In this document: positions 1,818-19,999 of the stretch, piece by piece
Layout of the letters: the number at the start of each line of letters is the position of its first letter
How positions within the stretch are numbered: position 1 is the first letter of the stretch
IMG/VR virus record: IMGVR_UViG_3300030202_003277
Length of the DNA: 20,000 nt
From: an uncultured virus (IMG/VR IMGVR_UViG_3300030202_003277)
Lineage: Duplodnaviria > Heunggongvirae > Uroviricota > Caudoviricetes
Strand: one strand, 5' to 3'
Notes under the pieces: model-generated
What the model was told of the DNA's origin: nothing
Database searches by the model: none
The model's input: only the letters and a program-made list of their open reading frames with translations
Position numbers and translations under genes: made by a program

Positions 1818-1839
1818 AATAATACTTTAAATTTATATT

Positions 1840-3501
1840 ATGGCAGATTGGGGTTTATATTCAGCATTAAGGGGTAAAAACAATTGGCAACAAAGACGTG
1901 CTGATAAGATGATGAATTTTCAAATGACTGAAGCTCTTAGGGCTAAAAGGGAAAGAGAAAATCAACAGAGAATGCAAATGGAAGCTAAATTTTTAGAATA
2001 CCAAAATGCTATTCAAAATTTAGATGTTTTAAAACAAGACCAAGAAAGAGTTAGGGGTGTAGAAGGTAAGGCTCGACAAAATGTTATAGCTGGTATTGCT
2101 AAGTATGATGGTGATATTAACAAATATATGAACAGTGGTGGTTTGCAACAAATGAATGCATATCAGCAAGAAGTAATGCAATCTGAAGAGTTAGCAAATG
2201 CTGTTCAAAATAAAAAAAATATGGCTTTATATCTTGCAGATAGAGCTAAAGGAGATAGATGGATGAAATCAGTTATGGTAGATAAAGAATTTATAGACCC
2301 ACAAACTGGAAAAAAAACTACAAGAAAAGTAGCTACAAATATGGAAGATCAAATGGCAATGTTTGATTCTGGTCAATTATCTAATTTTCAATTTAATGGT
2401 TCTGAAAAAAAGGTAGCGATAAATCCTGCATTATTTAAAAAATCTGTTAAAGACGCTACTAATCCATATAGTAAAGATAATTATGTAACACAATCTAATG
2501 TATTTGATGCTGCATTAATGCAAGGAGCAAGTAAAGAACAAGCTATGCAATTAGCAGAAGAATATGGACAAGGAGTACAAGCTGGCGGTGTTGAAAGTGC
2601 TTGGAGATGGGGAGCTGGTAATCCATTAGACATTGAAAAACTTAAAATGCAAGCAAGTCAGTTTAGAGAAAGTATGAATTATAAACGAGACTATTTAAAA
2701 CAACAAAAAGAACTTTCTCAATATAGGGCTAAATATGGTAATAAAGCAACTAATACTTTAGCTGCACATGCTGTTGCTGTTAATAGAAAATTATTAGCTG
2801 GTGGAGATGGTGCTACTTCTACTGATGGTTTGTTATTAAATGACATAGCAAAATTAACTCCAGAAAACTTTATTAAAATGCCACAAAATAAAGATAATCC
2901 AAATGGTATGCAATATATGTATTCTGGACCAATGCGTACAGCTACAACAAATTATATTGATGGTAGAGCACAAAGTCAATTAACTGGTGGAATAATAAAT
3001 TCAACAGGCAATCCAGTTCCAATAATGTTAGGAGATCCAAATAGTCGAAATTCATTTGTAAGATTAAGACAAGAAAATGGAGATATGGAAACATTTGCTA
3101 TAGCTTACGCACAAGGAAATGCTGATAATCCGATTTTTGGAGCAGCAGCTGCTAATGGTCAAGCTGGTAGTTGGGTGGTTGGAGATATTGATAATGCTAT
3201 TACTGGACAATCACAGAAAAAGTTTGTTGGTTTAATACCTGTAGGTGGTTTATTAGATAATCCAGCATATACTCAAGCATTAGATATGGAAGCTGGTTAT
3301 AAAGTACAAGGTCAAGGGCCTTATGAAAATTGGCAATCTTTGGGTACAGCTGGTTACAATGAAATTAATCAACAAAATATTAATGCTATGGGTGGTTTTG
3401 ATCAATATAATCAAATGGTTAATAATCAACTTGGAACATTTTATACCGGAAGTACATCGGCTGGACAAACAAATTATAGTTTAGAAAATTACGATCAATA
3501 A
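1840..3501 (+). CDS. Putative phage ejection/cargo protein (553 aa)
   Basis: Uninterrupted ORF with a Q/M/N-rich coiled-coil-like N-terminal half and a Gly/Asn-rich C-terminal half, and no Cys. AT-rich leader without a Shine-Dalgarno. The stop overlaps the next start (TAATG at 3499-3503). Confidence 0.6.
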   Translation: MADWGLYSALRGKNNWQQRRADKMMNFQMTEALRAKRERENQQRMQMEAKFLEYQNAIQNLDVLKQDQERVRGVEGKARQNVIAGIAKYDGDINKYMNSGGLQQMNAYQQEVMQSEELANAVQNKKNMALYLADRAKGDRWMKSVMVDKEFIDPQTGKKTTRKVATNMEDQMAMFDSGQLSNFQFNGSEKKVAINPALFKKSVKDATNPYSKDNYVTQSNVFDAALMQGASKEQAMQLAEEYGQGVQAGGVESAWRWGAGNPLDIEKLKMQASQFRESMNYKRDYLKQQKELSQYRAKYGNKATNTLAAHAVAVNRKLLAGGDGATSTDGLLLNDIAKLTPENFIKMPQNKDNPNGMQYMYSGPMRTATTNYIDGRAQSQLTGGIINSTGNPVPIMLGDPNSRNSFVRLRQENGDMETFAIAYAQGNADNPIFGAAAANGQAGSWVVGDIDNAITGQSQKKFVGLIPVGGLLDNPAYTQALDMEAGYKVQGQGPYENWQSLGTAGYNEINQQNINAMGGFDQYNQMVNNQLGTFYTGSTSAGQTNYSLENYDQ

Positions 3502-6500
3502 TGGGAGAATACGTAAAAAAACCGTTACAAACATCAGGTGGCAATCCAAATCAAGGGGCACAAGGATTTACTGAAGATTTTAGAGATAGAACTCCAGCTT
3601 TAATAGATGCTGATGGTAAAATAAATCTTGATAGAGAGTTTCTTTCTGGTAGGTCTGAAATGGAACAACAAATGACTTCAATGGGGTTTGATGTTGGAAG
3701 ATTAGATTTACAAGAATATGATTATGCTAATTTATATAGAGATTGGAACTCAGTTGATGCAAGAGAAGTGCCTGATTTTTACGATCCATTTGAAGCAGAA
3801 TCATATGAATTTGAAAGATGGGCTATAACTGACATGGCTGCTGGACTTTGGAATAGAGGTGTTGCTGGAATGGTTAGTGGTTTAGCACAAGCTCCAGCTA
3901 TTGTTGGTGCGGCTATTACTGGTGGAGAAGTAGATGGGTTTTGGGATAGTTGGATTCAAGGAGCAAATGACATGGGTGAAGCTATGAGTGTTCAGCAAAG
4001 TGATAGATCTTTAATTCCTATGACATCTGAAATTAATTCAAGCAATTTAGCATATGCTATTGGAGATGGATTAGGATTTGTAGCAGATATATTTTTAGGA
4101 AGTCATGGTGTTGGTTCATTAGTAAAAGCCGGTTCTGCTGTTAGTAAAGTACAAAGAGCACAAAGACTTGGAAGTTTTTTGACTGGTACTGTTCAAATGC
4201 AAAAAGATTTATATCAAGAAGGAATTAGAAATGGTTTAAATCCTGGAGATGCAGCAAGAGTTGCTATACCTACAGCTTCAATAGTTTCTTTATCTGAGGG
4301 AGCTGCTTTAGAAATGTTAGGTGCTACTATAAGTGGACAAACATTAAGGGGAATAGGTACATCTGCTTTAAAGGGAGAATTTCAAGCTATGGGTAAAGCT
4401 TTTGCTAAAGGTGGTTCTGGATTAACAATGTCAAATTTTAAAAAATTAGCTCCAAAATATGCTAAATCATTTGGTCAAAAAATGAAAAGTTTAGGAGCCA
4501 GTGCATATAAAGGTGCTACAGTTGAGGCAACACAAGAATTTACTCAACAATATATTGAAGATTTTGGAAAGTTTGCTTATGATACATGGTTTGCTGGAGA
4601 TGATAAAACAAAAGGTAAAGGGAAATTTGGTGTAGAGTGGGATAAAACTTTAGAAAAAGCAATGGTAGGTGCTTTAGTAGGTGGTCTTGTTGGTGGTATG
4701 GTAAGTGGTGGTGGTTCAGCAATTAGAGGGGTTGAAGGAAATACTACGTTTGCATATGTTAAAGATGCAATAGATAATAACAAACCTGGTAAAATTAAAA
4801 GAATTATAAATCAAGTTAATAGAATGGGTGCTAATGGAAAGGTAGAAAACGCTCCAGAAGTAATTCAAGCTATTAAAGATATGACAAGATTTTCTCAATC
4901 TATAAAAGGTCTTAATATAGATTCAAGTACTGCTAATTTTCAATTATTTCAATTAAATCAAATACAACAAGGGTTTCAAGAAAAATTTGGTAAAGAATTT
5001 AAAACTGATCCTAAAACAAATTATTTAATAGCTAATGCTTATAGAATTAATGAGCAAAAAGCAACTATGCTTACTCAAGCTATGAATAATGAAATGCAAG
5101 TTCTTATTCAGGATAAAAAGCCACTAACTAAAGACTTAAATAAATTTGAAACTAAATTAAATAATTATCAAAAGTTATTTAAACAAATTCAAAAAGGACA
5201 AATTAATGAAGAGCAATTAGTTAAAGAAATTAGAAAAAATGAATCCCCTACTGTTACTAAATGGAGACAATCCATTGAAGCAGAAATGGAAAAAATTAAA
5301 CAATCACAATTAGATAATGATGGTGTTTCTGTTAATGAACAATTAGATAATTTAGACGCTGAAAAATTAAAGAAAAAAGAATCTACATTAGAATATGTAG
5401 AATTACCTAATAATAAAAAAGCTACTAAAAAAGCAATTACAGATTTTGAAAAAATTATTGCAGAGAGAGATAAAATGAATACTGCAGCTGAAAAAGATAG
5501 TACTGTTCGTGATGCATTTGCAGATAAAATGAGAGATGAATATGGAATGACTTTAGCTGATTTAACAGAGCTTGAAACAAATTGGACTTTTGGCGAAAAT
5601 ATTAAAAGTAAACGTGAAGAGGGTTCATTAAAATATGTACAACCAAAAACAAAACAAACTGAAGAATCAAAGACTCCAAAACAAGAAAATAGAATTAAAG
5701 AATTAGAACAAGAAATTGAAGATCAAAAAAGAGTTGTTGCTATAACTGGACCAGCTAAAGCGGGAGATGTAACTTCTACTGATGCTAATTTAAAATTAAA
5801 ACAATTAGAAAAATCTTTAGAAATTGAAAAAGCAGCTGTTGCTGCTTCTGAAAGGAAAGAAGGTACTACACCAGTTTTTGAAAACGAAGAAATAGATGGT
5901 AAATTCTATAGAGATAATCAAAAAGAAATTGAAAGTAGAGCTAAAGAAATTAGAGAAAATAAAGAAGCTAATAAAATAGCAGATGCAATAAAAAAATCTT
6001 CTAAAGAAGAATTAGAAGATGCAGCTAAAAAAGCTGAAGAAATTAAAGAAGCTAAAAAGAAGCCTGAATCTAAGAAGAAACAAGATAAGAAAGTAGCTCC
6101 TAAAAAAGTAAAAGAAGATTCTAAAGCTGAAAGAATTGCTAAAAGAGATAAAAAACTTTTTGAAGAAACTCAAGAAGCTCCTGGAATACCAGGAAAACCT
6201 AAATTAGATAATATAATTAATGATGGAAATGTAACTACAGGTGTTTATGTAAATGAAAATGGTGATATAGATATAGTTATTAGTAGTACAGGTACAAACC
6301 AAAATTATGTAGGATTTTATAGAGTTTATGAAGATGGTAAACCAACAAATAAATTTACCTCTAAAATGCAAGTTGTTGATGGTAAAGGGTTTGGTAAAAT
6401 GATAGCAAATGCTCAAAAACAATTACCTGAAGGACATCAATGGTTAGAAACTAAAAGTGTTTCTAAAGATGGTTTAAGAGTTTGGAATAAAGCTAAACAA

Positions 6501-9500
6501 AAAGGATATAAAGAAGTTGTTGATGAAAATGGTAATATAGTAACTAATGAGGTAACGTTAAATCAAGCCACAAAAGAAGGTATAACTGGAGAGTCTACAG
6601 ACTACAAAGATGTTGTAGTTAGTAAAGCTGAGGCTGATAATATTGTTAATGAACTTCAAGAGATATACCCAGGAATTGAAACATCTACCATTAAAGGAGG
6701 TCCAGGTAAAGTTAAAATAAAAATAAAACTACCTGTATTAGAAAGCACTACTGAAAAAGTTGATTCTACAAAAACTAAAGATAAAGTACCTACAGAAACT
6801 AAAGAAGTTTCAACTGAAATTTCAAGTTCTGAAGAAATTAAACAAGAATCAGCTGCAATTTTAAATGAATATTCAAATTCTGAAATTGCTAAAATAATAA
6901 GAAGAGAAGATGATGAATATTCTCAAAATGAAGAGTCTTTAGGTAGATTTATCGAAAGAAATACTGAAAATGTTGAAGGTGGAAAAGCTATAGAAGATAT
7001 ATATGAGTATGGTATTATTCAAAGAATAATTGCAAATGATGGTTCTAAAATTCAAAGATTAGTTGATTTAAATGGAAAAGTTCATGGTATTCCTTTAATT
7101 AATCTTACAATGGATGCAAAAGAATCTGGATTGTTATTTGATGGAAAAAAAGATTTTAGTTTATCAGAAAAAGAAATTTCAGATTTCTTTAAATCTAAAT
7201 TTGGTACTAAAGAAGATGTAGATGAAATTACAGATGAAGATATAGATGAAGATGATATGCCATTTGGTTATACTCCTATGTCTGAAGAAGATAAAGCTAA
7301 ATTAGACAATCAAACAAAAGACAAAAAAGAACAAAGGACTGATTTAAAAAGAGATTTACAAAAAGAAAAACTTGAAGCAAATAAAATAAAAAACAATCCT
7401 GAGTTATATGCTAAAATATTAAATCATTTTCAAAAATTATTTCCAAATATACCAGTTCAACAACTTAATAATGCACTGTGGAAAAATGGGCCATTTACTG
7501 TAGCTTATATAAATGAATTAGGTGTTNNNNNNNNNNTACTGATGAAGCTTTTCAAAATACATTATTACATGAAGGAGCTCATATTATAAAAGAAATTTTA
7601 GGAGACAATCATCCTTTAATTAAAGCTGGTATGCAGTTTATTAAAGGCACAGATTACTTTAAAAATGCTCAAGTATTATATTCTGATAAAAGTGTAGCAG
7701 AACAAGCTGAAGAAGCTTTAATGGAAGCTATAGCTGATAATTCATTAGAAAAATTAAAAACTAAATTAGAAGGAACAAACTTACAAAAATTTGTTTCTTG
7801 GTTAAAAAGATTTTGGAATGCAGCTAAAAGAGCTATAGGTCTTAAAAAAGGTAAGCAATCAGTTGAAATGCTTGCTGATATGTTAGCTTATGAAAAAGCT
7901 CCTTATAATGCTGATTTAGGTTTGTTTAATGAATTTAAAGAACAGCGTTCAGCATTACATATGCAAACAGTACAAGAGGTTCAATCTACTATTTCTTTAG
8001 CAAGATTAAATTATAGATTAAATCCAGAAGATTATTTAAACCCTACTACTAAACAAAATTTAAAATATTTAGTTTATAATAAACTTGGACTTAAAGTTAT
8101 TCAAGATTCTATTATAGCAAACCCTAATTCTATAAATGAAACATTATCTTCTCAAACAGTAAATCAAATTAAAGAAGAAACAGATAAAGAACTTAGGGCT
8201 CAAAAATTGTATTATGCATTAAAAGTTGAAAATAATCAATTATGGAAATTGATTGAAACAACTACTAATCAATTATCTAAAAAATCATTACCAACAATAA
8301 CGGATCTTGAAGAATTAGTAAAGACTGAATTAAAAGGTAATAAAGATATTTCAGAATCGGTTAGGTCTATTGTAACAGCAATTGTTGATAATGATGGTTA
8401 TTTATATGATTCAAATGAAGTTTATCAAAATATTGCAAGAATAGCTGATAAATCTATCGATATAAAGTCATTTGAAAAAAATCTTCAAGAAGATGAAACT
8501 AAAGGAAATGATATAGCTAAAAAGATTAATTTAATTTTAAATGCTTTCCCTACTAATGCAAAAAATGGTATTCTTTCTGAATTAGCTTCATTAACTACAA
8601 TAGAATATAGGTCTTTAATTAAAACACATAATGTAGTTGATGGTCAGAAAGTTACACAAGTTTTATGGAAAAGAGTAAATAAAGATAGAACTGTAGATGA
8701 TTTATTTAATAGGTATGCTGTAAATTATAAAAATGCTAACCTAAATCAGCTAAGATTATTAAATAGTCAGTTAAAAGATATTAAAAAAGGATTTGCAATT
8801 AAAAGATTTGTTGTTGATCAAGATGTAAATAATGCATTTTTTCAAAATGCTAAAATGTTTGTTGAAGAATTAGTTGGAGATAGTTTTACTAATGAAGAAT
8901 TTAAACAGTTTTTAAATAAACAAATTAAAACAGCTCCTTCCGTAGAGAAAAAAGTTCAAAGGTTATCATATTTATTTGCAGCAAGTTCAAAAAGAGATGG
9001 AACATTTACACCTGGTTCTTTTAGTAAATTATTAAATGATATAAAAACACAAAACAAATTTGATAAAAAAGAATTTTCAGGTGTTTTAAGAAATTTAGCG
9101 ATTGCTAAAAAGGGTGATTCAATTTCATCAAATTTTGTTAATCAAGCTGGAAATAATGTAACTGCAACTAAATTAGGTTATTGGGTTAATCAATTTGGTA
9201 AAATGTTTGCTTATGATAATAAATTTAGAAATGAATTATTAAACTCTACATTATATAAAGCTAATCCAGTTTTAAAAGAGTGGGCTAAGTCAAAAGAAAT
9301 TCCAGAATGGTTTATACATGACGCATTTGAAAACACTGGTTTTAGTGGAGCTATAGAACACAATAATGCTACAATTAATGATATTGTTTTAAATAACTTT
9401 TTTTATTATTCTCAAAATAAATCTAATCAAAAATCATACGCACAATCAATAGGTGTTACTGGAGATAGAGGACATTTAACATATTTTAAAGTACCTAAGT

Positions 9501-12500
9501 ATAGTGAAGAACAATTAATTAACGAATATAAAATAAGAGCAAAATTAGATGAGGCTTTGTTAAATAGAAAAATAAGAGATAAAGGTGTTTCGCCAAAATC
9601 TTTAGTAAATCAATTTAATAAACTTTCTTTAAATCAAGCTGTTATATTTGATGGTAAAGTTGAAGTATTTATAGATGCAGTTGGAGATTATGAGATGTCA
9701 CTTCCTCGAGTTCGAAAAAGAGTAGAAAATCTATATAAATTATTAGAAAACTCAGGAACATTAGAAGCTCTTGCTCAACAAAATCCTTCTGTAATAGTTG
9801 ATGGTAAAATAAATAAGGATAAAGTAAATGAATTAATAACAAATTATATTTACACTGAATCATTAAATAGGTCTTATTTAACTGATATTTATGCTGGTCC
9901 AGCTATAGATAGAAAATCAGTTGCTGATGTAATGAAGCGTATGGCTGGTTTAAATTCAGGCGGTAAGCTTATTCAAATAGATAAACCAGTTCATGTGTTT
10001 GTTTTAGATACTTCAGGAGCAGATGGAAAAATTATGTCTGATTCATTTTCATTTAATGGTTCACATTTAGCAAACCATATTTCAGAACAAAGTGGAAGTA
10101 CTGATGTAGTTGGTGTAAATATGAAAGATATGCTTTATCAAATTAGTAACGATGGTGGTCTTGATTTTTATAAAATGTCAACTTTAAATGTTACTGGTGA
10201 AATAGATGATAATTCATTAACTCAATTTACTGATTCTAATAATCTAACTGAAGGTTATAATGCAATTGGAAATGCAATTTTAGAATTAGAAAAAGCTTTA
10301 GGTGATAATGCATATGTTAAAATAATTGATAAAGATGTTGTTAAAGGAGATTTGTCTCAATATGATAAAATTCCAATTAATGAATTTCTTGCAGATCCAG
10401 CAAAAGTAAAAAATAGAAATACTCTTAAAGAATTTAAAAATTACAGAGTAGCATTTAATCTTAACAAAGATTTATCAAAAGTTCCATTAGCTAATCAAAA
10501 TGTAATAATGTCTACACAATTAGCTAAAATTTTATTAAATCATGATGTATCAATTGAAGAAATTGAAAATTTTGAAAATGCATTAGTATCTGTATTAGAT
10601 GATTCATTAAAAGAAAATCAAACATTTAGTAAGTTAAATAACATTAATAGATTATTAAATGAATTAACTAAAGATTCAGAAGAAAATACAAAGTCAGAAA
10701 TTATTGAAATTCTTTCTGAAATGAAACGATTAAATAGTGGAACTTTTGAAACTACTTATAGAATTGGAAATTATAATTACTCTCAATCTCAAGTAGCTAA
10801 TTTAGGTTCTATAAATGAATCTGCTAAAAAATTTGCTGATAATTTAATAACTAAACAAGAGTGGCAAGATATATTAAATAAACATGAAATGTCTGAAGAG
10901 ATGTTTAATGAAGCCATGACTAATAATGTTATAAATAGATATAAAGGAAAAGATTTAGGCGAATTTGCAACAACAATTAAAAAAAGTAAAAAAGTTAGTG
11001 TATTATTAGATTCTTTTGATCATCCAAATTTAAAACCTATGGTTGAGCAATTTATATCAAGTAGGTTAACAAAACAGGGTATAAGAACTAATATGTCTGG
11101 TATGTATGCACATATGCTTCCAGATTTTACAGATAAACTTAAAGGTTATAAAGAAAATGGTTTAGAGCCAATGGAAATTGGTGTTCCATGGTCGTTATTT
11201 ATACAAAAAAGACCAGGGGAATCTGATGAAAGTGCCAAAGGAAGAGCTGAAGAATTATTAAAAGAAAAACCAGAATTATTTAGAAATGTTGTTGTTCGTG
11301 TTCCCGCTTCAGGAGCTGTATCAAGTTTTGCTGGACAAGTTAAGTTTTTTGTTGATGGACATTCAAATACAGCTATTGTTCCTAAATCATATATGGAGGC
11401 AGCAGATGCAGATAATGATGGAGATAAAGTGTTTGTTTATAGAGCTGATTTAAATAAAGAAAGTGAACTTTTAGAAAGTAATAAAACAAAAGCTTTTAAC
11501 CAGGTTTATGAAAAAGCAAATTCTAAAGCTCAAAAAGAAGCTGCAGTAAAAGGAGATTTATCTTTAGATAGAATAAAAGAACTATTAAAAGAATTTGATT
11601 TATACAATGAAGATGTTTTTCAATTAAACAGTAATGAGGATTTTGCTAAGTTAGCAAATAACATGTCTTTTGGAGCAGATGCAATTGGTATATGGGCTGT
11701 AGCTTCTAAAATGTTATCTATGCTTTCACAGTCACAAGAACAATTAAAAAAACCTATTTCTTTTGGTTTTGAAAATGGAAATTTAGTTGATATAAAAAGA
11801 CAAAAATTTACTAACAATGCATTAAGTGATGTAGCAGTATTTTTACAAGCAGCTCTTGATATGGGTAATGATCCAGTTCACATTTCAACAGGAGTTAATG
11901 AATATACTATAGGTGTCGCAACAGCATTATCTTTAATGGATGTTTCTTTTGAAGAAATTATTCCTTTTTTAAATTCAAAACCTATTGCTGATTTAGTAAA
12001 TGAAATTGATAATGCTAAAACAAATTATATAGATAAATCTTCTTTTAGTATTAATAAATTCTTGAAAGCAAAATTAAACGAATTTGACGCTAAAAAAGGA
12101 AGTAAGTCTAAAGCTGAAATAAAAGCAATTATAGAGAACGGTGGTCAAGTAATACAAAAAGATCAAGTTGTTCCTGGTATATTTAAAACTGGAGATACAT
12201 ATTATAAAGTAGAAGAAATAGAAGCAAATGTTGCTAAATATTCTTTTGCTACAGAATCTGATTTAGAATCTTCAGATAATTTAGCAATTATTAAAAAGTT
12301 TGCAGAAATTCAAGAATTAGCTTCAGAATTACAAAGACTAATACCAGTATTACAATTAGATAATAAACTTCCTAATAATGGTTTTGATACAAAAAAATCA
12401 TTAGAAGTAATGGCAGATTTAAGAAATGATGGTTTTTCTTTTACTACTGATAATTTAGCAAAAAGACCATTGATTAAACATTACTCTAAAATGCTTGTAA

Positions 12501-13660
12501 AATTAAATGGTTTTTATAATGCAAGATTTTATATAAATGATAATCAATTCTATGATCTTGGTATGCAATTAGCTACTCAAATTTTTGGAAAAAATTCAGC
12601 TATTTATAAACATAAAGAAACTTTTGAATCTATAAAAGATACTATGTATTTATGGAGAGCACAAAAAGAGTTTAACAATCAAATTGATTCAGCTCCTGTA
12701 TTTATACAAGATACTGTTAACAAATTTGAAACAATTATAAATTCATTAAACAATACTAATGAAAGTAATTTGTTTATTTCAAAACCTTATGGTGTTAGTG
12801 ATCAAGCTTTTAATCAAGTTATGAATCAATTGAAATCAGCAAAAGAAATGAGTGTTCAAACTCCAGAAGTTTTTACTAATGAATTGAATAGACTAATAAC
12901 TTCTGAAAATCAAATTGAACGTATAATTGGAGAAGCAGTTGTTAAAAATCAAGAATATGCTGCAATAGGAAATCAATTAAGTAATAATGCATTTATTAAA
13001 CATTTAACAATTCAAGAAACTAAAGATGGAACTAAACATATTGTGCCAGTTAAATTAATTAATGATATTTCTGTTTCTGGATTAAAAGTAATTCAAGATG
13101 CATATAATAATTTAGCTAATATTGAAGGTGGAGTAGGTTTAACTTTACAAAAAGAGATTAGAGCTTATGCAATGTTAAGATTTGGTATGGCTTCTAAAAT
13201 GGGAAGTATATCTAAAATGTTTCCAACAGGAATGTCTATTGCAGTATTAAAAAATTCTCGAGATTTTAAAAATAATGCTATTGACACTCAAAGTGCAACT
13301 AATTTCTTTGTTAACCCAAAAAATATTGAAATGTTAAAAGCAAATACAGCTATTATGATGAAAGAAAAATTACCATTAGCTGTACCTACAGATAGACAAA
13401 TTTCAAGTGATTCAGATTTAGCTTATGGCACATATTATGCACATTCTGAAGGAGTTACTGTAAATACAAAATCAGATTTTGTTAATATTAATAATGATGT
13501 ATATAGAAGAGTACCTGAAAGTAATATTTTTCAAAATTTAAAAGGTCTTGGTGGAATGAAAGAAAAAGGTTATACTGTATTAATTAAAGATAAAAACAGC
13601 TTTGATTTAAGCAATAGAGAAGTACAAGATAATGCTAATCAAATTAAAAAAGAATGTTAA
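3501..13660 (+). CDS. Giant virion-associated polyprotein (about 3385 aa): membrane/ejection domain + GNAT-like domain + zincin metallopeptidase + crAss-like DNA-dependent RNA polymerase; interrupted by an assembly gap
   Basis: The frame of 3501 is open up to the N run (7527-7536). Right after the gap, the frame of the 7631 ORF is open from 7538 and reads TDEAFQNTLLHEGAHIIKEILGDNHPLIKAG-MQFIKG, completing a zincin domain whose first half (KILNHFQKLFPNIPV...AYINELGV) lies before the gap. A true gap of 8 or 11 nt (3n+2) fuses the two. RNAP motifs lie downstream. Confidence 0.8.
3830..4730 (+). other. Gly/Ala-rich hydrophobic helical domain (putative membrane-inserting/ejection-channel region)
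   Basis: Segments GVAGMVSGLAQAPAIVGAAITGG, AYAIGDGLGFVADIFLGSHGVGSLV and AMVGALVGGLVGGMVSGGGSAI, plus GATVEATQEFTQQ (4512-4550). This resembles the ExxxExxQ pattern I recognise from large phage ejection/polyvalent proteins. Confidence 0.55.
6190..6745 (+). other. GNAT acetyltransferase-like domain embedded in the polyprotein
   Basis: Globular beta-rich segment between two K/E-rich linkers. It has GKGFG (6381-6395, similar to GNAT motif A Q/RxxGxG), followed by SVSKDGLRVWNKAKQKGY (6456-6509), resembling motif B of phage polyvalent-protein GNATs. Confidence 0.45.
7401..7890 (+). other. Zincin metallopeptidase domain 1 (HExxH), spanning the N gap
   Basis: HEGAH at 7568-7582, in the frame of the downstream RNAP ORF but upstream of its track-called ATG. 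Candidate third-ligand helix EQAEEALMEAIA and terminal LKRFW helix. Confidence 0.8.
7527..7536. other. Assembly/scaffold gap (10 N)
   Basis: Ten consecutive N. The round length suggests a placeholder. It causes the apparent frameshift between 3501..7589 and 7631..13660. Confidence 0.95.
9850..12000 (+). other. Catalytic core of a two-barrel (DPBB) virion RNA polymerase, crAss-like type
   Basis: Ordered motifs: DVMKRMAGLNSGG (KR at 9935-9940), FYKMS, STQLAKIL (10511-10534), VVVRVPAS (RVP at 11297-11305), DADNDGDK (11405-11428, the DxDxD metal-binding loop; cf. NADFDGD in beta' and DFDID in phi14:2 gp66), and AALDMGNDP (11849-11875). Boundaries are approximate. Confidence 0.85.
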
Positions 13661-16600
13661 ATGACGTGTCCAAATAAATCAAACCCAGATTGGATAGCAT
13701 TAGTTGATGCTGTAGGAGAAAAAGCAGCTATTGAGGCTTATGTTAGAAATAATTATGATATACCTAAATTAAATGGATATGTTAATCCAATTAATGAAGG
13801 ATTGACTGGTACAAAATTTAATCAAGTTTCTACTCAAACTAAATTAAATGAAGCTCCTAAAATAGCACAAGAAATTATTAATAAATTAAATACTCAAATG
13901 CCTGATGTACAGGTTAGTTTAGATGGTTTAATTAAAGATGGGAAATGGATAAAAATACCACCAGGTCAAGATGGTATGCATAATAGAAATGCTTTTGTTG
14001 GTGCTGTAGCTTGGGCTAATGATTCTATGTTAGAAACTCCACCTCATGAATATGCTCATGAATATATCGAGATGTTTAAAAATCATCCTTTAGTAAGGAA
14101 AGCAATTATGGCTTATGGCTCAGAAGGATTAGCTATTAAAATGGGTCAAGATTTTGTTAATCGAACATTGTCTAAAAATCAATTGCCTTTAATAGAAAGA
14201 ATATGGGATGTAATTAGAAACTTTTTTGGATCTAAAGATGTAGCAGATATTATTTCTGATAATTTTTATAAAGGAGAAATGATGTCAGGACAAATTTCTG
14301 AGGGTAATAATATTATAAGTTATAATACTAAAAAACAACCATTAAAAAGAATTAAAGGAGCTTTTGATAGTAAAGGAAAGTTTGATGAAAATTCAGTTGT
14401 TTTAAAAACTATTGATACAGATAGAGCTGTTGATTATATAATGCAAACAATGGCTGGTTATAATGTTTTTGGAAATTTAAAATCAGAATTTGATTTTGAT
14501 GTAGGACAAATTGTAGATAAAGTAGAGGGAGAAGTTAATCCTGATAGAGCTGCTCTTGTTTTTAAGTATATAATGCAAGCTGTTCAAGCAACAGATAGAG
14601 ATGTTAATGGTAAATATGCTAATAGAGCTGGTATATCAATTCAACAAATAAGAGAATTACAAAAACGATTATTTGATCAAGAGCATGTAAAAGAATTATT
14701 AGATATTTTACAAGGCAACAAACCTCAACCAGCAATAAATAACTTAACTAAAATTTCTAAAGATTATTGGCTTTTAGTAAGAGCAATGCAAAAATTAAAT
14801 TATTTAGAAAAAGTTAAAAATGGTGTAATTGCTGATAATAATAAAATAATAAGCAAAGTAACTTTAGCTGAAGAAATTACAAAAAACATAGAATCTTTAA
14901 ATCAAAAAAGAGCAGATTTATTAGATAAGAAATTTAAAAATCCATACATAAGAAAATTTGTAAAATGGTCTAATAAACAAATAACTGATTATTTTATAAC
15001 TCCGTATTTAACTGCTAAATATTTAGCTGGTGAAGATTCAGTGTTTATGGATATGTTTTATAGGGGGTTAGATAATGCTGATACTAATAAATTAAGAATA
15101 CTACAACAGTTTGATAAAGATTTAGCTTTAAAACAAGAAGTTAAAAACCGATTGGGTAAATATTCTGCATTTTCTGATTCTAATTTAGATATAAGTAGTT
15201 ATAAAGGTTTAGAATTAGACCTTATTGTTAATGATAATCAAACAAAAGTAAAGCTTACAGATGGTGAAATACTTTCTTTATATCTAACAGCACAACAAAA
15301 AGGAGATCAATCTATTTTTCCAGATTCTGATAGCCCACGATTAACATTAATAAAGCATGGTTTTCAATTAGATAAAATTGAAGGTAGACCCGGAATGGCC
15401 AAGACAAGATATAATTTTAGTGAAGGAACTTTACAAGCAATTGAAAAGCACGTTGAATCTAATCCAGATTTAATGCAAGTAGTAAAAAATGTAAATAAAT
15501 CTTTAGATAATTTATTTGTTCCATTGTCAGAAACTTTTAAACAACAAAATGGTTTTTATCTACCTAAATATGAAAATTACTTTCCTGTAACAACATATTT
15601 AGGAGCATATGACATGAAAGTACAAAGAAATAATATTGAAAGCTTTAAATCAATTAGAGATAGAGTAGGTTCAGGTAAACCTTTTTATATTTCTGATGTA
15701 AATAAAGTTTTAGCTTATCATTCACAAAATGCATCTTCATATTCTGCATATGCTATTCCTATAGAAAATAATAGGAAAATTATTAAAATGTTAAAAGATG
15801 AATATGATGGTGGTGGTAAAGAATATGAAACTATAAATAAACTTTTAGATCAAGCAGAAAGTAAATTAGTACAATTAAATGACCCTACATTTTTATCTAC
15901 TTCTGAAGGAGAAACAAGACTTGCTAATACTTTAAATAAAGGTATGAGTAATTTTGCTGTTGCAGTATTGTCTTGGAATATACCAGTTATGATGAAACAG
16001 CCTATTTCATATATGGCTGCAAGAGAAATGATAAATGCAAAATATTTAGCTAAAGCTGGTTGGGGAGCTGGTGGTATAGCGGGTATTTCTCCTAAACAAA
16101 TTTGGGATTCATTAAGTGTTCCTGGAGTTAAAGGTGGTAAAACTATATTGCCTGTTGAATGGCAAATGGATGAAAAAAACCCAGCTTATCAAGAAATTAT
16201 AAAATGGTCTCCAAAATTAACTGCAAGATTTGATGGTGCTGTTTCTAAAGAAATGGGTGAAGCTATGTTTGAAAAAAAGTTTGGTAAAGATGAAATTACA
16301 TTACCAGGTTTAAAAAATAAAAATGGTGATAATTATAAAGTTTCACGAGCAAGGTTAATGGAAGGTATTAAAATATTTGATGCTGCTACTGTAATGTCAA
16401 TATGGAGTGCTGTTCAAGAAGAAGCAAAAGAAATGCACCCAAGTTTAAAAGAAGGTAGCAATGAATTTATGGAACATGTAGCACAACGAACAGAAAATAT
16501 AGTTAATGCTACACAGCCTACTTTTGATTTAATGAATAGAACTAATTTAAGTTCTATGAAAAATCCTTTTGCAAGAACATTTTCTATGTTTGGTTCAGCA

Positions 16601-17137
16601 AGAAGTAAATTAGGAGCATTAATGATAGATGGTTTTTATGACGCTATGATGAATCCTACTAAAGAAAATAAAATTAAATTGTGGAAAAGAACATTTAATT
16701 TAGCTGTTTTAAATGGTTTAGCTATATCTATGGCAAATGCATTAGCAATGGGGTTTGATTTTGATGATGAAGATAAAGATGGAAGAGTTGTTGATGATAT
16801 AGGTAATTGGACAAAATATCAACTTGTAAATAATGCATTTGGTAACTTTTATTTTGGTGGTGAAGTTTCAAGATTTATTACTTCAAGAATAGATGATGCA
16901 CCATGGAGAAGTGAAATTGACAATCCTTTAGAACAAGTTTTAAATGATGGATTAGAAGCTACTACTAAAATTATTAGAATAGGAAAAACAGATAAAAGAA
17001 CAGGTGAGTGGAATTACACAATAGATAATGGATTGTGGCAAATGGTTGATGTTGGAACTAAAATGATGGGAATGCCTAATAAATTAGTTAAGTGGCCCGA
17101 AAAATCTTATGAATATTTTATTGGAGATGAAGAATAA
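13661..17137 (+). CDS. Large ejection/cargo protein with N-terminal zincin metallopeptidase (1158 aa)
   Basis: Starts MTCPNKSNPDWIALVDAVGE. TPPHEYAHEY, with HExxH at 14045-14059. The C-terminal half is helical with hydrophobic segments (NFAVAVLSWNIPVMMKQPISY; NATQPTFDLMNR...NPFARTFSMFGS; LAVLNGLAISMANALAMG), as seen in large phage internal/polyvalent proteins. The ATG immediately follows the RNAP stop. Confidence 0.75.
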   Translation: MTCPNKSNPDWIALVDAVGEKAAIEAYVRNNYDIPKLNGYVNPINEGLTGTKFNQVSTQTKLNEAPKIAQEIINKLNTQMPDVQVSLDGLIKDGKWIKIPPGQDGMHNRNAFVGAVAWANDSMLETPPHEYAHEYIEMFKNHPLVRKAIMAYGSEGLAIKMGQDFVNRTLSKNQLPLIERIWDVIRNFFGSKDVADIISDNFYKGEMMSGQISEGNNIISYNTKKQPLKRIKGAFDSKGKFDENSVVLKTIDTDRAVDYIMQTMAGYNVFGNLKSEFDFDVGQIVDKVEGEVNPDRAALVFKYIMQAVQATDRDVNGKYANRAGISIQQIRELQKRLFDQEHVKELLDILQGNKPQPAINNLTKISKDYWLLVRAMQKLNYLEKVKNGVIADNNKIISKVTLAEEITKNIESLNQKRADLLDKKFKNPYIRKFVKWSNKQITDYFITPYLTAKYLAGEDSVFMDMFYRGLDNADTNKLRILQQFDKDLALKQEVKNRLGKYSAFSDSNLDISSYKGLELDLIVNDNQTKVKLTDGEILSLYLTAQQKGDQSIFPDSDSPRLTLIKHGFQLDKIEGRPGMAKTRYNFSEGTLQAIEKHVESNPDLMQVVKNVNKSLDNLFVPLSETFKQQNGFYLPKYENYFPVTTYLGAYDMKVQRNNIESFKSIRDRVGSGKPFYISDVNKVLAYHSQNASSYSAYAIPIENNRKIIKMLKDEYDGGGKEYETINKLLDQAESKLVQLNDPTFLSTSEGETRLANTLNKGMSNFAVAVLSWNIPVMMKQPISYMAAREMINAKYLAKAGWGAGGIAGISPKQIWDSLSVPGVKGGKTILPVEWQMDEKNPAYQEIIKWSPKLTARFDGAVSKEMGEAMFEKKFGKDEITLPGLKNKNGDNYKVSRARLMEGIKIFDAATVMSIWSAVQEEAKEMHPSLKEGSNEFMEHVAQRTENIVNATQPTFDLMNRTNLSSMKNPFARTFSMFGSARSKLGALMIDGFYDAMMNPTKENKIKLWKRTFNLAVLNGLAISMANALAMGFDFDDEDKDGRVVDDIGNWTKYQLVNNAFGNFYFGGEVSRFITSRIDDAPWRSEIDNPLEQVLNDGLEATTKIIRIGKTDKRTGEWNYTIDNGLWQMVDVGTKMMGMPNKLVKWPEKSYEYFIGDEE

Positions 17138-17158: not shown

Positions 17159-18079
17159 ATGGCTTTAGAACTGGATTTTGATTTAAGTATTACAGATTGT
17201 TGTGATGAATTACAGTTTTGTGATACTACTTGTGTTGTTAATCCTGATGAACCAGCACTTTGTTGTGATGGTTACGGAGCTTTAAATAATCCAAACATTT
17301 CAGATATATATTCTACTTCATTTAATTGGGTTTTACCAAGTGGAGCAGTTTATAATAATGTTAACCCTGGTTGGTTACAAGGATTACAAGCGTGCTATTC
17401 GTTACAAATTACTGGTGGTGTAGGTGGAAATATAGGTGTTGCTATAAATAGCACATATATAGGAACAACATTTTTTAATACTGATTTATCAAATACTGCT
17501 ACACAATTAGTACAAAGTATTAATTCACTTTCAGCTGGAACTGGATGGTGGGCTTACAAAGATCAAAACGATACAACAGGTACTACTGTTGTTATTTGTA
17601 ATTTACAAAATGGAATTGGTTTTAATGCATTACCTGTATTAGTTAGTGCTGATGGTACTATGACAACATCTTGGTTAGTTGGTGATGAAACAAGTGGTGG
17701 TAGAAATGGAGATGCGTGTTTTACTGTTAATTTAGATGATGTAGTTCCAGATCCATGTACTGTAGAAAGTTTTCCATCTTGGTTAGATGGAGTATATACG
17801 TTAACATATATTGTATATGATGTTAATGGAATAGAAATAACAAGAAAAACTAAAAAATTCTTTATAGACTGTAATGCTAAAAAATGTTTAAAGACGTTGA
17901 TTAAAGCTTTGTTAGACGATTGCAAAGATTGTGATGAAGCAGATCCTCGTATAGTTATGTTAAGGTCAAAGTTAGATGCAGCCAGAAATCAATTTGATGA
18001 ATGTTTATATGAATGTGCTCAAGAAACAATTGAGTCCGTTAGTAAGCAATGTAGAAACTTTTGCCTTGATTGTGACTGA
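17159..18079 (+). CDS. Cys-rich virion structural protein (putative tail hub/fibre adaptor), 306 aa
   Basis: 19 Cys by my count. Beta-rich body with WLDGVYTLTYIV and a C-terminal helical Cys-rich bundle (IDCNAKKCLKTL...DCKDCD...KLDAARNQFDEC...CRNFCLDCD). The TGA stop overlaps the next ATG (TGATG). Confidence 0.55.
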   Translation: MALELDFDLSITDCCDELQFCDTTCVVNPDEPALCCDGYGALNNPNISDIYSTSFNWVLPSGAVYNNVNPGWLQGLQACYSLQITGGVGGNIGVAINSTYIGTTFFNTDLSNTATQLVQSINSLSAGTGWWAYKDQNDTTGTTVVICNLQNGIGFNALPVLVSADGTMTTSWLVGDETSGGRNGDACFTVNLDDVVPDPCTVESFPSWLDGVYTLTYIVYDVNGIEITRKTKKFFIDCNAKKCLKTLIKALLDDCKDCDEADPRIVMLRSKLDAARNQFDECLYECAQETIESVSKQCRNFCLDCD

Positions 18080-18843
18080 TGAGTTTAATAAATGACATAA
18101 ATAATAATCTGACTTTTTTAAATGCTTTTAAAGCGTCAATGCCATTTGTTATTACGGTTGATCAAATTTGGTGTGATAACGCCACAAAAACATCATTTAC
18201 TCCTGAATCTCGTTCTGGTTTTTATTGTGAACCTTGTTTTTGGTTAAAACCATCAGATAGTTGTGATACATTTTACATGATAGATAAATCTAACTATTGT
18301 GGAAATGAAGGTTTAAATTGTCCTTATAGTGTTTTAACAATTGGGCTTCAAGAGTTTTGGTTGTTGCCAAATGATATTAATCAATATAGTGTTGATTTTA
18401 AAGGTTGTTGTGATACAGAATGGACAAATGTATTAGGTTTAAATACTTTTTCACAAAATTCACAAACTGCAATTACAGCTTCAAGGGGAGATGGGTGTTA
18501 TAGAGTAAATGTAACAATAAGTGTAGATGTTTATGAAAATGTTGATATTGGAAGAGAGCCTGTATTAGTTTTTGTAGAAACAATACAAAAAACTTATTCA
18601 TATACTATAACTATTGATTGCTGTGCTACGTTAAAGAAGAATTTAATAGAAAAAGTTAAATGCAAATTAGGATTAATTTCTTGTCAAATTAATAGTAATG
18701 AAATAGTTGGTAAAAAAACTACACGTCTTTATAATGATATGCATAGGCTTTTAAATATATTATGGGTATTAGAAAACTTTCCATTAGATTGTAAATGTAT
18801 TCAGTCATTAAAATGTGGTTTTGATAAAATTAAAAATTGTTAG
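18079..18843 (+). CDS. Cys-rich virion structural protein, probable distant paralog of the preceding gene, 254 aa
   Basis: 17 Cys by my count. GDGCYRVNVTI parallels DGVYTLTYIV, and TIDCCATLKKNL parallels FIDCNAKKCLKTL. Helical Cys-terminated C-terminus. TAG stop. Confidence 0.55.
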   Translation: MSLINDINNNLTFLNAFKASMPFVITVDQIWCDNATKTSFTPESRSGFYCEPCFWLKPSDSCDTFYMIDKSNYCGNEGLNCPYSVLTIGLQEFWLLPNDINQYSVDFKGCCDTEWTNVLGLNTFSQNSQTAITASRGDGCYRVNVTISVDVYENVDIGREPVLVFVETIQKTYSYTITIDCCATLKKNLIEKVKCKLGLISCQINSNEIVGKKTTRLYNDMHRLLNILWVLENFPLDCKCIQSLKCGFDKIKNC

Positions 18844-18845
18844 AT

Positions 18846-19547
18846 ATGAGTAATTGTTGTGATAATGAAAATAAAATCTTTATAAGTGATATTATATATG
18901 ACTGTGAAGAATTTCAGTGTGCTGGATTGCCAGCGTTAACTATAAAGCCTTGTATGACAATGTGTGAGGTTTTTAACATCATATTAACACAGTTATGCAC
19001 ATTATCAGGTGCTGGAGATATAACTGCTTCAAATGTAGGTGGTGGTATAGGTGTTTTTTATCAAAAAGTGGCAAGTGATTTAGAGTTTAAAACTCTTATT
19101 GCTGGAGATGGAATACAATTAGATAATGTATCTAATCCAGAAGAAATTATAATTACATCTACAGCTGGTACAAGTGCTGCTTGTATAGAGGCTCAAATTG
19201 ATTATACACTTGTACCTGGACCATATAGTGCTTCTAATAATTTACCTTCATTAACGTTTAATGTAGTTGCTACAGGAACGTATAATATTTCTGTAACTTT
19301 AGGTGCAAGAATAGTACCTAATGATAATGTAACATATCAAGTTTATGTTAATGGGTTGCCAGTTGGTTTTCCTTACTTACATACTAAAGATAATACAGCT
19401 ACTGGTGGCGATTATCAAATTTGTCATTTTGAAACTTGTAAGCCTTTAGTTGCTGCTGATGTTGTAAATGTAGTTGGTATTGCAGCCGGAGTTGGTCAAG
19501 GAACTACTATTGGGTCGTGTAATTTGTTTATACAAAGAATTGATTAA
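18846..19547 (+). CDS. Putative short tail fibre/spike protein with C1q/TNF-like (BclA-C-like) C-terminal head, 233 aa
   Basis: ATG at 18846 (MSNCCD) is preferred over the overlapping TTG at 18837. Cys-rich N-terminal anchor; fibre-type shaft motif ASNVGGGIGVFYQKVASDLEFKTLIAGDGIQL (about 19025-19120); beta-sandwich C-terminus (FNVVATGTYNISVTL...VYVNG...LVAADVVNV...NLFIQRID). Confidence 0.6.
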   Translation: MSNCCDNENKIFISDIIYDCEEFQCAGLPALTIKPCMTMCEVFNIILTQLCTLSGAGDITASNVGGGIGVFYQKVASDLEFKTLIAGDGIQLDNVSNPEEIIITSTAGTSAACIEAQIDYTLVPGPYSASNNLPSLTFNVVATGTYNISVTLGARIVPNDNVTYQVYVNGLPVGFPYLHTKDNTATGGDYQICHFETCKPLVAADVVNVVGIAAGVGQGTTIGSCNLFIQRID

Positions 19548-19558
19548 AAAAGAATATT

Positions 19559-19999
19559 ATGGGAAATTGTTGTTGTAATAAAAAAACAAAACTTAAAAGT
19601 TGTAAATGTGGTTCTACTGATGGAACTTATAATATTGTAATACCAAGTAAAGATTTTAATTGGGAAGTATTTGATATTAATTTAGGAGCTACAGCTGATC
19701 CTTTAACGTTTATTGATAATGATTTTCAAGTATGGTATGATAGAATGACTTGTGATGATACTATAAGAGTTACATTGTCTACAAATGATACTTCGGTTGA
19801 TAAAATATTTTTTGGAGTACCTACAGTTTCTGAATTTACATTTAGAGATGTTCCGGCAGATAATAGTACATTTACATTAGGAGATTTATATATAAGATTT
19901 ACAGGTGTTCCAGCTCCCGGCACAGTAGTAACTTTTTATGTAGATCATGAAGGGTGTTCAAGAAAAAGAAAACAAACTGGAACAGCAATAGTACCTTAA
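19559..19999 (+). CDS. Small beta-rich protein with Cys/Lys-rich N-terminus, probably structural (146 aa)
   Basis: Starts MGNCCCNKKTKLKSCKCG. AT-rich leader with A at -3. Complete, with TAA at 19997-19999. Confidence 0.55.
   Translation: MGNCCCNKKTKLKSCKCGSTDGTYNIVIPSKDFNWEVFDINLGATADPLTFIDNDFQVWYDRMTCDDTIRVTLSTNDTSVDKIFFGVPTVSEFTFRDVPADNSTFTLGDLYIRFTGVPAPGTVVTFYVDHEGCSRKRKQTGTAIVP

Follow-up and report, generated by a model that had tools for sequence, protein, structure and literature searches.

Two cultured crassviruses store giant proteins together with a virion RNA polymerase. Virions of phi14:2 contain gp65, gp66 and gp67, and in some phages these are fused to one polyprotein, according to the available text of the gp66 preprint (bioRxiv 10.1101/2020.03.07.982082). 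In virions of crAss001, gp45, gp46, gp47, gp49 and gp50 were detected, and most of the cargo was not resolved in the structure, as reported in the accessible part of that study (PMC10172136). In the pre-ejectosome of cyanophage A4, electron cryo-microscopy showed that gp26 receives the gp27 C-terminal helix in a cleft and that Cys1715 and Cys5 are joined by a disulfide (PNAS 2025, PMC12002296, available text). Here, we analysed a stretch of 20,000 nucleotides (nt) from an uncultured Caudoviricetes virus (IMG/VR record IMGVR_UViG_3300030202_003277; hereafter the window). In it, a giant gene (3501..13660, + strand), the product of which has a predicted crAss-type RNA polymerase part, is directly followed by the gene of a putative zincin protein (13661..17137, + strand; hereafter the next protein). 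Both proteins are almost devoid of cysteine (Cys), and each has a single one at the end that faces the other. We propose that a disulfide probably joins the polymerase giant and the zincin protein end to end, as judged from the sequence signature and from the analogy to A4.

The sequence-only reading of this DNA had claimed that ~5700 residues of cargo hold only two Cys, and that their TGT codons share one frame and are split only by TAA-ATG-ACG. A programmatic count for each open reading frame (ORF) agreed: there was no Cys in the ORFs 15-1817 (600 residues), 1840-3501 (553 residues) and 3501-7589 (1362 residues), one in ORF 7631-13660 (2009 residues), where it is the last residue, and one in ORF 13661-17137 (1158 residues), at residue 3. 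The junction reads ...AAA GAA TGT TAA ATG ACG TGT CCA AAT..., with the two TGT codons at 13655-13657 and 13667-13669 in the same frame. From the position-specific base composition of the five ORFs, 7.0+7.4+13.8+21.7+15.6 = 65.5 Cys are expected. In a near-identical record, the 33 other ORFs have 90 Cys in 7,185 residues (1.25%), a rate at which ~71 would be expected in the block. The two Cys found in ORFs 15-17137 therefore stand against 65-71 expected. The chance that two random Cys in ~5,700 positions hit the last seven and the first six residues of adjoining proteins is ~3e-6. The four ORFs downstream (17159-19999) contain 54 Cys in 942 residues, and so the phage is not generally Cys-poor. 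The depletion of Cys is specific to the cargo block, and the position of the two remaining Cys is far from chance.

The ORFs 3501-7589 and 7631-13660 are parts of a single gene. A run of 10 N (7527..7536) stands in place of 8 bases in the near-identical record (2 differences in 12,400 compared positions), which shifts the frame and makes one gene appear as two ORFs. The database protein P0030 (3,385 amino acids, aa) is 100% identical over the compared part, starts like ORF 3501 and ends in ...IKKEC; its single Cys is the last residue. After the giant is merged, the cargo block comprises 600 + 553 + 3,385 + 1,158 aa = 5,696 residues with 2 Cys. The earlier assignment of an RNA polymerase protein to 7631-13660 thus kept its label, through the homology to gp66 described below, and had to be revised in extent, as that ORF covers only the C-terminal 2,009 of the 3,385 residues.

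The C-terminal 999 aa of the giant (10661..13657, + strand) are a predicted homolog of the catalytic subunit of the crAss-like virion RNA polymerase. A profile of these residues matched phi14:2 gp66 in hhalign with a probability of 91.5% (E 8.6e-7, 450 columns). The AlphaFold model of the same part is of low confidence, with a mean predicted local distance difference test (pLDDT) of 61.6; Foldseek with the model of the giant's C-terminal part gave the gp66 structure, 6vr4_A, as the only match at E ≤0.001 (E 5.5e-6, probability 1.00). A DADNDGD metal-binding motif (11405..11425, + strand) aligns with the catalytic DFDID of phi14:2 gp66, and its counterpart in relatives, SDADHDGDK, is nearly invariant. 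The giant thus appears to combine the DxDxD metal-binding motif of the catalytic barrel with profile and fold similarity to gp66 (PDB 6VR4). Direct phmmer comparison of the window proteins with the cargo proteins of phi14:2 and crAss001 gave nothing significant, and the gp66 link of the giant emerged only from profile and fold comparison; phmmer and a five-sequence giant profile found no relevant match among PDB sequences. From its homologs and its Cys depletion, the giant is likely to be packed in the virion and injected. Its C-terminal tail (13592..13657, + strand) is predicted to form a terminal helix (model residues 978-998, low confidence) and ends in ...NQIKKEC.

Some relatives carry insertions in this region. 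In L009 (2-2989) and L014 (2-2743), an extra domain of 250-300 aa separates the Cys tail from the polymerase core, and the tail Cys is still at the extreme end. In L008 (1-2988), an insert of ~170 aa follows the catalytic motif.

Three parts can be told apart in the next protein (1,158 aa): a Cys module at the N-terminus, a zincin-like domain, and a large part that is helical. The module, MTCPNKSNPDW...IP (13661..13768, + strand), comprises a coil (residues 1-8) and two helices (9-18 and 20-29), and its TGT codon at 13667-13669 encodes the only Cys. Among relatives, the module occurs solely where split forms have their N-terminus. The zincin-like domain carries HEYAH (HExxH; 14045..14059, + strand). 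H129, E130, H133 and E155 are invariant in a 26-sequence alignment, and HExxH...E is nearly invariant among 41 sequences; the assignment as zincin-like is by motif, HExxH with the downstream Glu as a putative third zinc ligand. The large helical part matches phrog_28077, a family of unknown function, which was the sole PHROG match among the window proteins. Pfam gave nothing on any of the eight window proteins, the next protein included. A Foldseek search with the whole model gave nothing at E ≤0.001 among PDB folds, tblastn against 50,697 phage records gave no match, and we detected no relation to phi14:2 gp65. The giant has a second zincin-like motif, HEGAH (7568..7582, + strand), which aligns with the HEYGH and HEYGH-like motifs of fused relatives. 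HEGAH and the HEYAH of the next protein occur in a like context (HExAH..e....HPL), which suggests from sequence that the HExxH modules flanking the junction are paralogous zincin modules.

We then compared the two Cys among relatives. Each of the 29 proteins homologous to the next protein (27-99% identity, 1,105-1,431 aa) has exactly one Cys, at residue 3-5, in the motif M-x(1-3)-C-P-N, and C3 is invariant in the 41 aligned sequences. Likewise, six of six homologs of the giant have exactly one Cys, within the last five residues, although one of them is only 24% identical. At loci where the giant and the next gene are separate, both Cys were present in 15/15 cases; the two ORFs are spaced there by -17 to +26 nt, with the tail Cys at 1-7 residues from the end. 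Even when the Cys column was left out, a profile of the N-terminal module detected the module in 53 proteins, always N-terminal and always after a Cys. The 54th match was a second, internal one in one of the same 53 proteins.

A HMMER scan of 1.84 billion representatives gave 780 matches at E ≤0.001, of which the best 150 were used for counts of fused forms. In seven relatives among these 150, a single chain (3,509-4,826 aa) comprises both the giant and the next protein. Six of the seven fused chains have no Cys at all, and P0106 has three, all inside the giant part and none at the junction. The N-terminal module and the Cys tail are both missing at the junctions of the fused forms. Fusion and splitting also occur at a second place: the gp67/gp66 junction, split in phi14:2, is fused and Cys-free in the window's giant, and the window's own split junction is fused and Cys-free in P0056-type proteins. 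A different arrangement was observed in P0036 (2,302 aa), where the N-terminal part of the giant and its zincin region are joined directly to the next protein, without the polymerase part, and where the Cys is residue 1517.

The same pattern was observed in cultured and named crassviruses. In phi14:2, gp67 (1,797 aa) has one Cys, the last residue, gp66 (2,180 aa) has two, residues 3 and 2179, and gp65 (1,421 aa) has one, residue 3. The series gp67-gp66-gp65 therefore holds four Cys in 5,398 residues, every one at facing ends. In crAss001, gp47 has a single Cys, residue 2339 of 2341, gp50 has Cys 5, 1334 and 2404 of 2412, and gp49 has a single Cys at residue 5; gp50 and gp49 are homologs of phi14:2 gp66 and gp65, and gene 47 is on the opposite strand. 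Five reference Suoliviridae (cr50_1, cr118_1, cr56_1, cr53_1 and cr7_1) also have the pair at the junction between the giant and the next protein, with 2-13 Cys in the part of the giant that was examined (the last 2,666 aa for cr50_1 and cr118_1, the whole gene for cr56_1, cr53_1 and cr7_1). The annotated giant genes of cr56_1 (L076), cr53_1 (L077) and cr7_1 (L078) show 24-148 in-frame stops under table 11. Such stops are consistent with stop-codon reassignment, which is known in phages of this kind.

Next, we made a census of junctions between Cys-poor ORFs in 70 loci (L001-L070) retrieved through the zincin motif. Many unrelated-looking pairs of giant Cys-poor ORFs share the same type of junction there. 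A junction was counted when at least 130 aa of the upstream ORF were visible, the downstream ORF had at least 250 aa, both had at most 0.4% Cys, and the gap was -40 to +80 nt. Out of 38 such junctions (27 distinct junction strings), 32 (22 strings) have both Cys, 6 (5 strings) have neither, and none (0 strings) has only one. These rules excluded short upstream fragments that also carry the pair (L011, the first junction of L036, L039, L040 and L066). Of the 37 ORFs in which 1,500 aa or more are visible, 25 have no Cys, and all 37 together have 21 Cys in 72,857 residues. Three proteins follow in a row in L031 and in L036, and in L036 the only two Cys of the middle protein (1,883 aa) are residue 3 and its last residue. 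Other genes can separate two Cys-capped ends, the C-terminus of one protein and the N-terminus of the giant ORF that follows: exactly this place is taken by a GIY-YIG homing endonuclease gene in L064 (1290-2072) and by an ORF with DUF5856 in L031 (1394-1855), so that mobile genes sit at such junctions.

The sequence-only reading had staked its proposal on neighbouring cargo genes, which should have conserved a Cys at the C-terminus of one product together with an MxCPN motif at the N-terminus of the other. This co-conservation was borne out, by the 15/15 split loci, the 0/38 one-sided junctions, the lack of a junction Cys in fused relatives and the pairs in cultured crassviruses.

A structural precedent for this signature is provided by the A4 pair. 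In the A-4L genome, gp27 (1,717 aa) and gp26 (1,114 aa) are encoded by adjacent genes and have one Cys each, at residue 1715 and residue 5, respectively. Moreover, disulfides between molecules do exist in crAss001 virions, in the tail and at the portal vertex (PMC10172136). The following sequence of events can be proposed. The giant with the crAss-type virion RNA polymerase and the zincin-bearing next protein would be cargo that is packed in the head and injected. Both would have been purged of Cys like other injected phage proteins, each keeping one at the facing end. The C-terminal helix of the giant would dock on the next protein, and a disulfide would lock this docking, as between Cys1715 of A4 gp27 and Cys5 of gp26. 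The disulfide would thus do for two gene products what the peptide bond does in the fused relatives. The result would be an almost linear chain of ~4,500 residues, as the stubs beyond the Cys are only 0-8 and 2-5 residues long; such a nearly linear chain would suit passage through the tail channel. It could be packed in a fixed 1:1 ratio and threaded through the tail, and the link would be expected to open in the reducing cytoplasm of the host. Of the redox-cleavable tether put forward in the sequence-only reading, the pairing has stood, through the comparative tests and the A4 disulfide. The formation of the bond in this phage, its timing, its role, be it in ordering packaging and ejection or only in stabilising a cargo complex, and its reductive release in the cytoplasm are what we infer from them.

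Several observations weigh against this proposal. The two termini were modelled with low confidence, from alignments of 11 and 41 rows, and contact between them has no backing from any structural model: the last helix of the giant was modelled at pLDDT <50 and residues 1-8 of the next protein as coil at pLDDT ~63. A complex prediction with residues 1-210 of the next protein and the last 120 of the giant scored 0.13 against a mark of 0.32, which is neither support nor counter-evidence for binding. The window proteins are not homologous to A-4L gp27 and gp26 (hhalign probability 0.2% and 0.1%; phmmer E >0.1). The loci counted are relatives and not independent events. The depletion also has exceptions. 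Within the best 150 of the 780 matches, P0046, P0057 and P0059 have one further internal Cys each, P0036, P0095 and P0101 have one internal Cys each, and the fused P0106 has its three; in crAss001 gp50, one Cys is internal and the C-terminal one lies 9 residues from the end, and the giants of gut Suoliviridae hold 7-13 Cys. Six census junctions between Cys-free ORFs lack the pair, as do the junctions at 1817/1840 and 3501 within the window, which indicates that some cargo can do without a tether. Oxidation would have to take place even though virion assembly occurs in a reducing cytoplasm and the habitat of gut crassviruses is anoxic. Finally, proteins with Cys at both ends could close on themselves, and those with a single Cys could homodimerise.

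We considered other ways in which the two Cys could act. The termini could meet without a disulfide, their thiols sharing a metal ion (e.g. Zn or Cu, with further ligands) or lying in a non-covalent docking interface. The whole of the pairing evidence agrees equally well with such an arrangement. As no oxidation is required, it would also suit a reducing cytoplasm and anoxic habitats, and His is frequent at position 9 of the N-terminal module. We nevertheless consider it unlikely, because two thiols alone make a poor metal site and no further invariant ligand is present close to one or the other Cys: position 9 is Asn in the window, and the tails are variable. Moreover, the single solved case of the signature is reported as a disulfide in the accessible text of the A4 study (PMC12002296).

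Strict complementarity is the main difficulty for the view that each terminal Cys acts alone, by forming homodimers, by closing the protein on itself, or by tying the cargo to a portal, capsid or tail Cys. Homodimers could indeed form through a single free Cys, and phi14:2 gp66 and crAss001 gp50 bear Cys at both ends. Structural disulfides are many in crAss001: the available text describes intermolecular ones in the tail, at the portal vertex and in the gp57 dimer (PMC10172136). The absence of one-sided junctions would remain unexplained, however. Within a chain, the N-terminal Cys is always missing from the first protein and the C-terminal Cys from the last, and both Cys are lost together in the fused forms. 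We regard such independent action as improbable.

Matrix metalloproteinase zymogens are kept latent by a cysteine switch. By analogy, the N-terminal Cys, or the tail Cys of the giant in trans, could bind the zinc of the HExxH site and keep a protease latent until ejection. The Cys lies ~125 residues before the invariant HExxH...E, and the giant has an HExxH as well. The fused relatives, however, retain the zincin domain without any Cys, the phi14:2 gp67/gp66 pair occurs in proteins without HExxH, the terminal Cys are hundreds of residues from the zincin match in L036 and L031, and in A-4L the Cys of gp27 and gp26 bond to each other. A switch of this kind is thus very hard to reconcile with the data. 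Chance TGT codons, or a constraint on the nucleotides of the stop/start overlap, for instance translational coupling, can practically be dismissed even though the codons directly flank TAA-ATG, since the ORF spacing varies from -17 to +26 nt with the Cys 1-7 residues from the end, the GIY-YIG gene of L064 separates two capped ends, the pair is kept at 24-30% protein identity, and a stop/start constraint cannot explain a pair in which the partner, crAss001 gene 47, is on the opposite strand.

Some other functions of terminal Cys were rejected. A split intein or trans-splicing does not fit, as there is no Pfam family on either protein and the Cys, 0-7 and 2-5 residues from the ends, leave no room for intein halves. 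The Cys at residue 3-6 comes right after Met, with no signal peptide, which does not fit a bacterial lipoprotein. CaaX-like prenylation was discarded as the C-terminal stub varies in length from 0 to 8.

We return to the end-to-end disulfide. Few viruses of the human gut are as abundant as crassviruses, which have >5 megadaltons of cargo, including an RNA polymerase, to store and inject. If the disulfide is real, a reversible covalent link between ends would explain the fixed stoichiometry and the exit order of separate gene products, the interchangeable fused and split forms of the genes, and the survival of exactly these Cys. In annotation, the signature would mark giant ORFs that belong to one cargo chain. 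More tentatively, and with considerable doubt, we suggest that the terminal Cys could be a general coupler, by which giant cargo proteins would be linked head to tail, following gene order, into one linear thread of thousands of residues, kept in fixed ratio, extruded in single file and uncoupled by the reducing cytoplasm. Disulfide and peptide bond would then be interchangeable in evolution, at more than one junction and in unrelated families from T7-like cyanophages to gut crassviruses.

The remaining genes of the window flank the pair. Upstream are ORF1 (15..1817, + strand; 600 aa) and ORF2 (1840..3501, + strand; 553 aa), both without Cys and candidate cargo or ejection proteins, for which no Pfam or PHROG family was matched. 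Downstream, in contrast to the Cys-free block and outside the tether, are four Cys-rich ORFs (17159..19999, + strand): 17159-18079 (19 Cys in 306 residues), 18079-18843 (17 in 254), 18837-19547 (11 in 236) and 19559-19999 (7 in 146). They have 4.7-6.7% Cys, with CC and CxxxC runs, and perhaps represent disulfide- or metal-rich tail parts. They gave no Pfam or PHROG lead, and a protein-atlas look-up of a Cys-rich ORF returned only scores <0.8. A similar Cys-rich ORF of ~300 aa comes after the next protein in L001-L014.

The affiliation of the phage was assessed from its relatives. Two of them, with genomes of ~71 kilobases (kb) that are considered complete, have a gene for a head protein that shares 26-27% identity with its phi14:2 counterpart (L080 = G004:C1:68994-69674; L081 = G005:C1:59273-59950). 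These matches (E 3.7e-9 and 2e-5) came from two of the four records searched, and the two records without a match are 62% and 86% complete. The head protein in the ~71 kb relatives indicates that the phage is a distant, smaller relative of the crassviruses. Together with the gp66 homology, it bears out the earlier crAss-like label.

We found no description of Cys pairs in crassvirus cargo in the literature, in a search that was mostly outside subscription journals and did not include the crAss001 extended-data tables. The words 'cysteine' and 'disulfide' do not occur in the available text of the gp66 preprint (bioRxiv 10.1101/2020.03.07.982082). The crAss001 virions were analysed by mass spectrometry both reduced and non-reduced, and 'cysteine' is absent from the accessible text of that paper (PMC10172136). 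The A4 study, as far as its text is available, treats the bond as one stabilising contact and has nothing on Cys depletion ('cysteine' 0 times), on a rule across phages, or on fused versus split forms (PMC12002296). The work on polyvalent proteins describes giant multidomain injected proteins with zincin-like metallopeptidase hubs and proposes autoproteolysis for domain release; 'cysteine', 'disulfide' and 'split' do not occur in the part of its main text that is available (Iyer et al. 2017, PMC5512222).

How the window's pair compares with these systems can be summarised as follows. In AB toxins, an interchain disulfide holds two polypeptides together while they pass a narrow channel, and the reducing cytosol then opens it; the likeness is no more than an analogy, as the biological system is different and the bond there is not end-to-end. 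The zincin-like hubs of polyvalent proteins would correspond to the motif-based zincin-like domain of the next protein, and L044, a locus with the same Cys junction, carries an ART-PolyVal domain. With Schitoviridae the window shares near-total suppression of Cys and, as predicted, a giant injected virion RNA polymerase. That the ejected polymerase of N4 lacks Cys, as stated in the sequence-only reading, agrees with print: Cys makes up 0.00075% of the ejection proteins (N4 gp50, DEV gp71-gp73) versus 0.865% of the proteome, a suppression explained by transit through the oxidising periplasm (PMC11445570, available text). Schitoviridae differ in having no terminal Cys and no pair, and in a T7-like single-subunit polymerase as against the two-barrel type.

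With the cargo block of phi14:2 and crAss001 the window shares the C-terminal half of the giant, which is homologous to gp66, the terminal-Cys signature, and a putative zincin protein after the polymerase; the proteins of the cultured phages are packed in the virion, as is predicted for those of the window. In the window, however, the gp67-like and gp66-like parts are one protein, which leaves one junction instead of two, and the next protein has no detectable relation to gp65. The complete genomes of relatives of the window's phage are also smaller, ~71 kb versus ~100 kb in Crassvirales. Finally, the A4/A-4L pair gp27-gp26 is encoded by adjacent genes for large ejection proteins with one Cys each at facing ends, a layout that is also present here. 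A4 is a T7-like cyanophage without a virion RNA polymerase. By sequence and analogy, the window's pair would work like A4 gp27-gp26 and belongs to other protein families. The kind of link is known from one solved phage, A4, and the crassviruses appear to extend the rule through their sequence signature.

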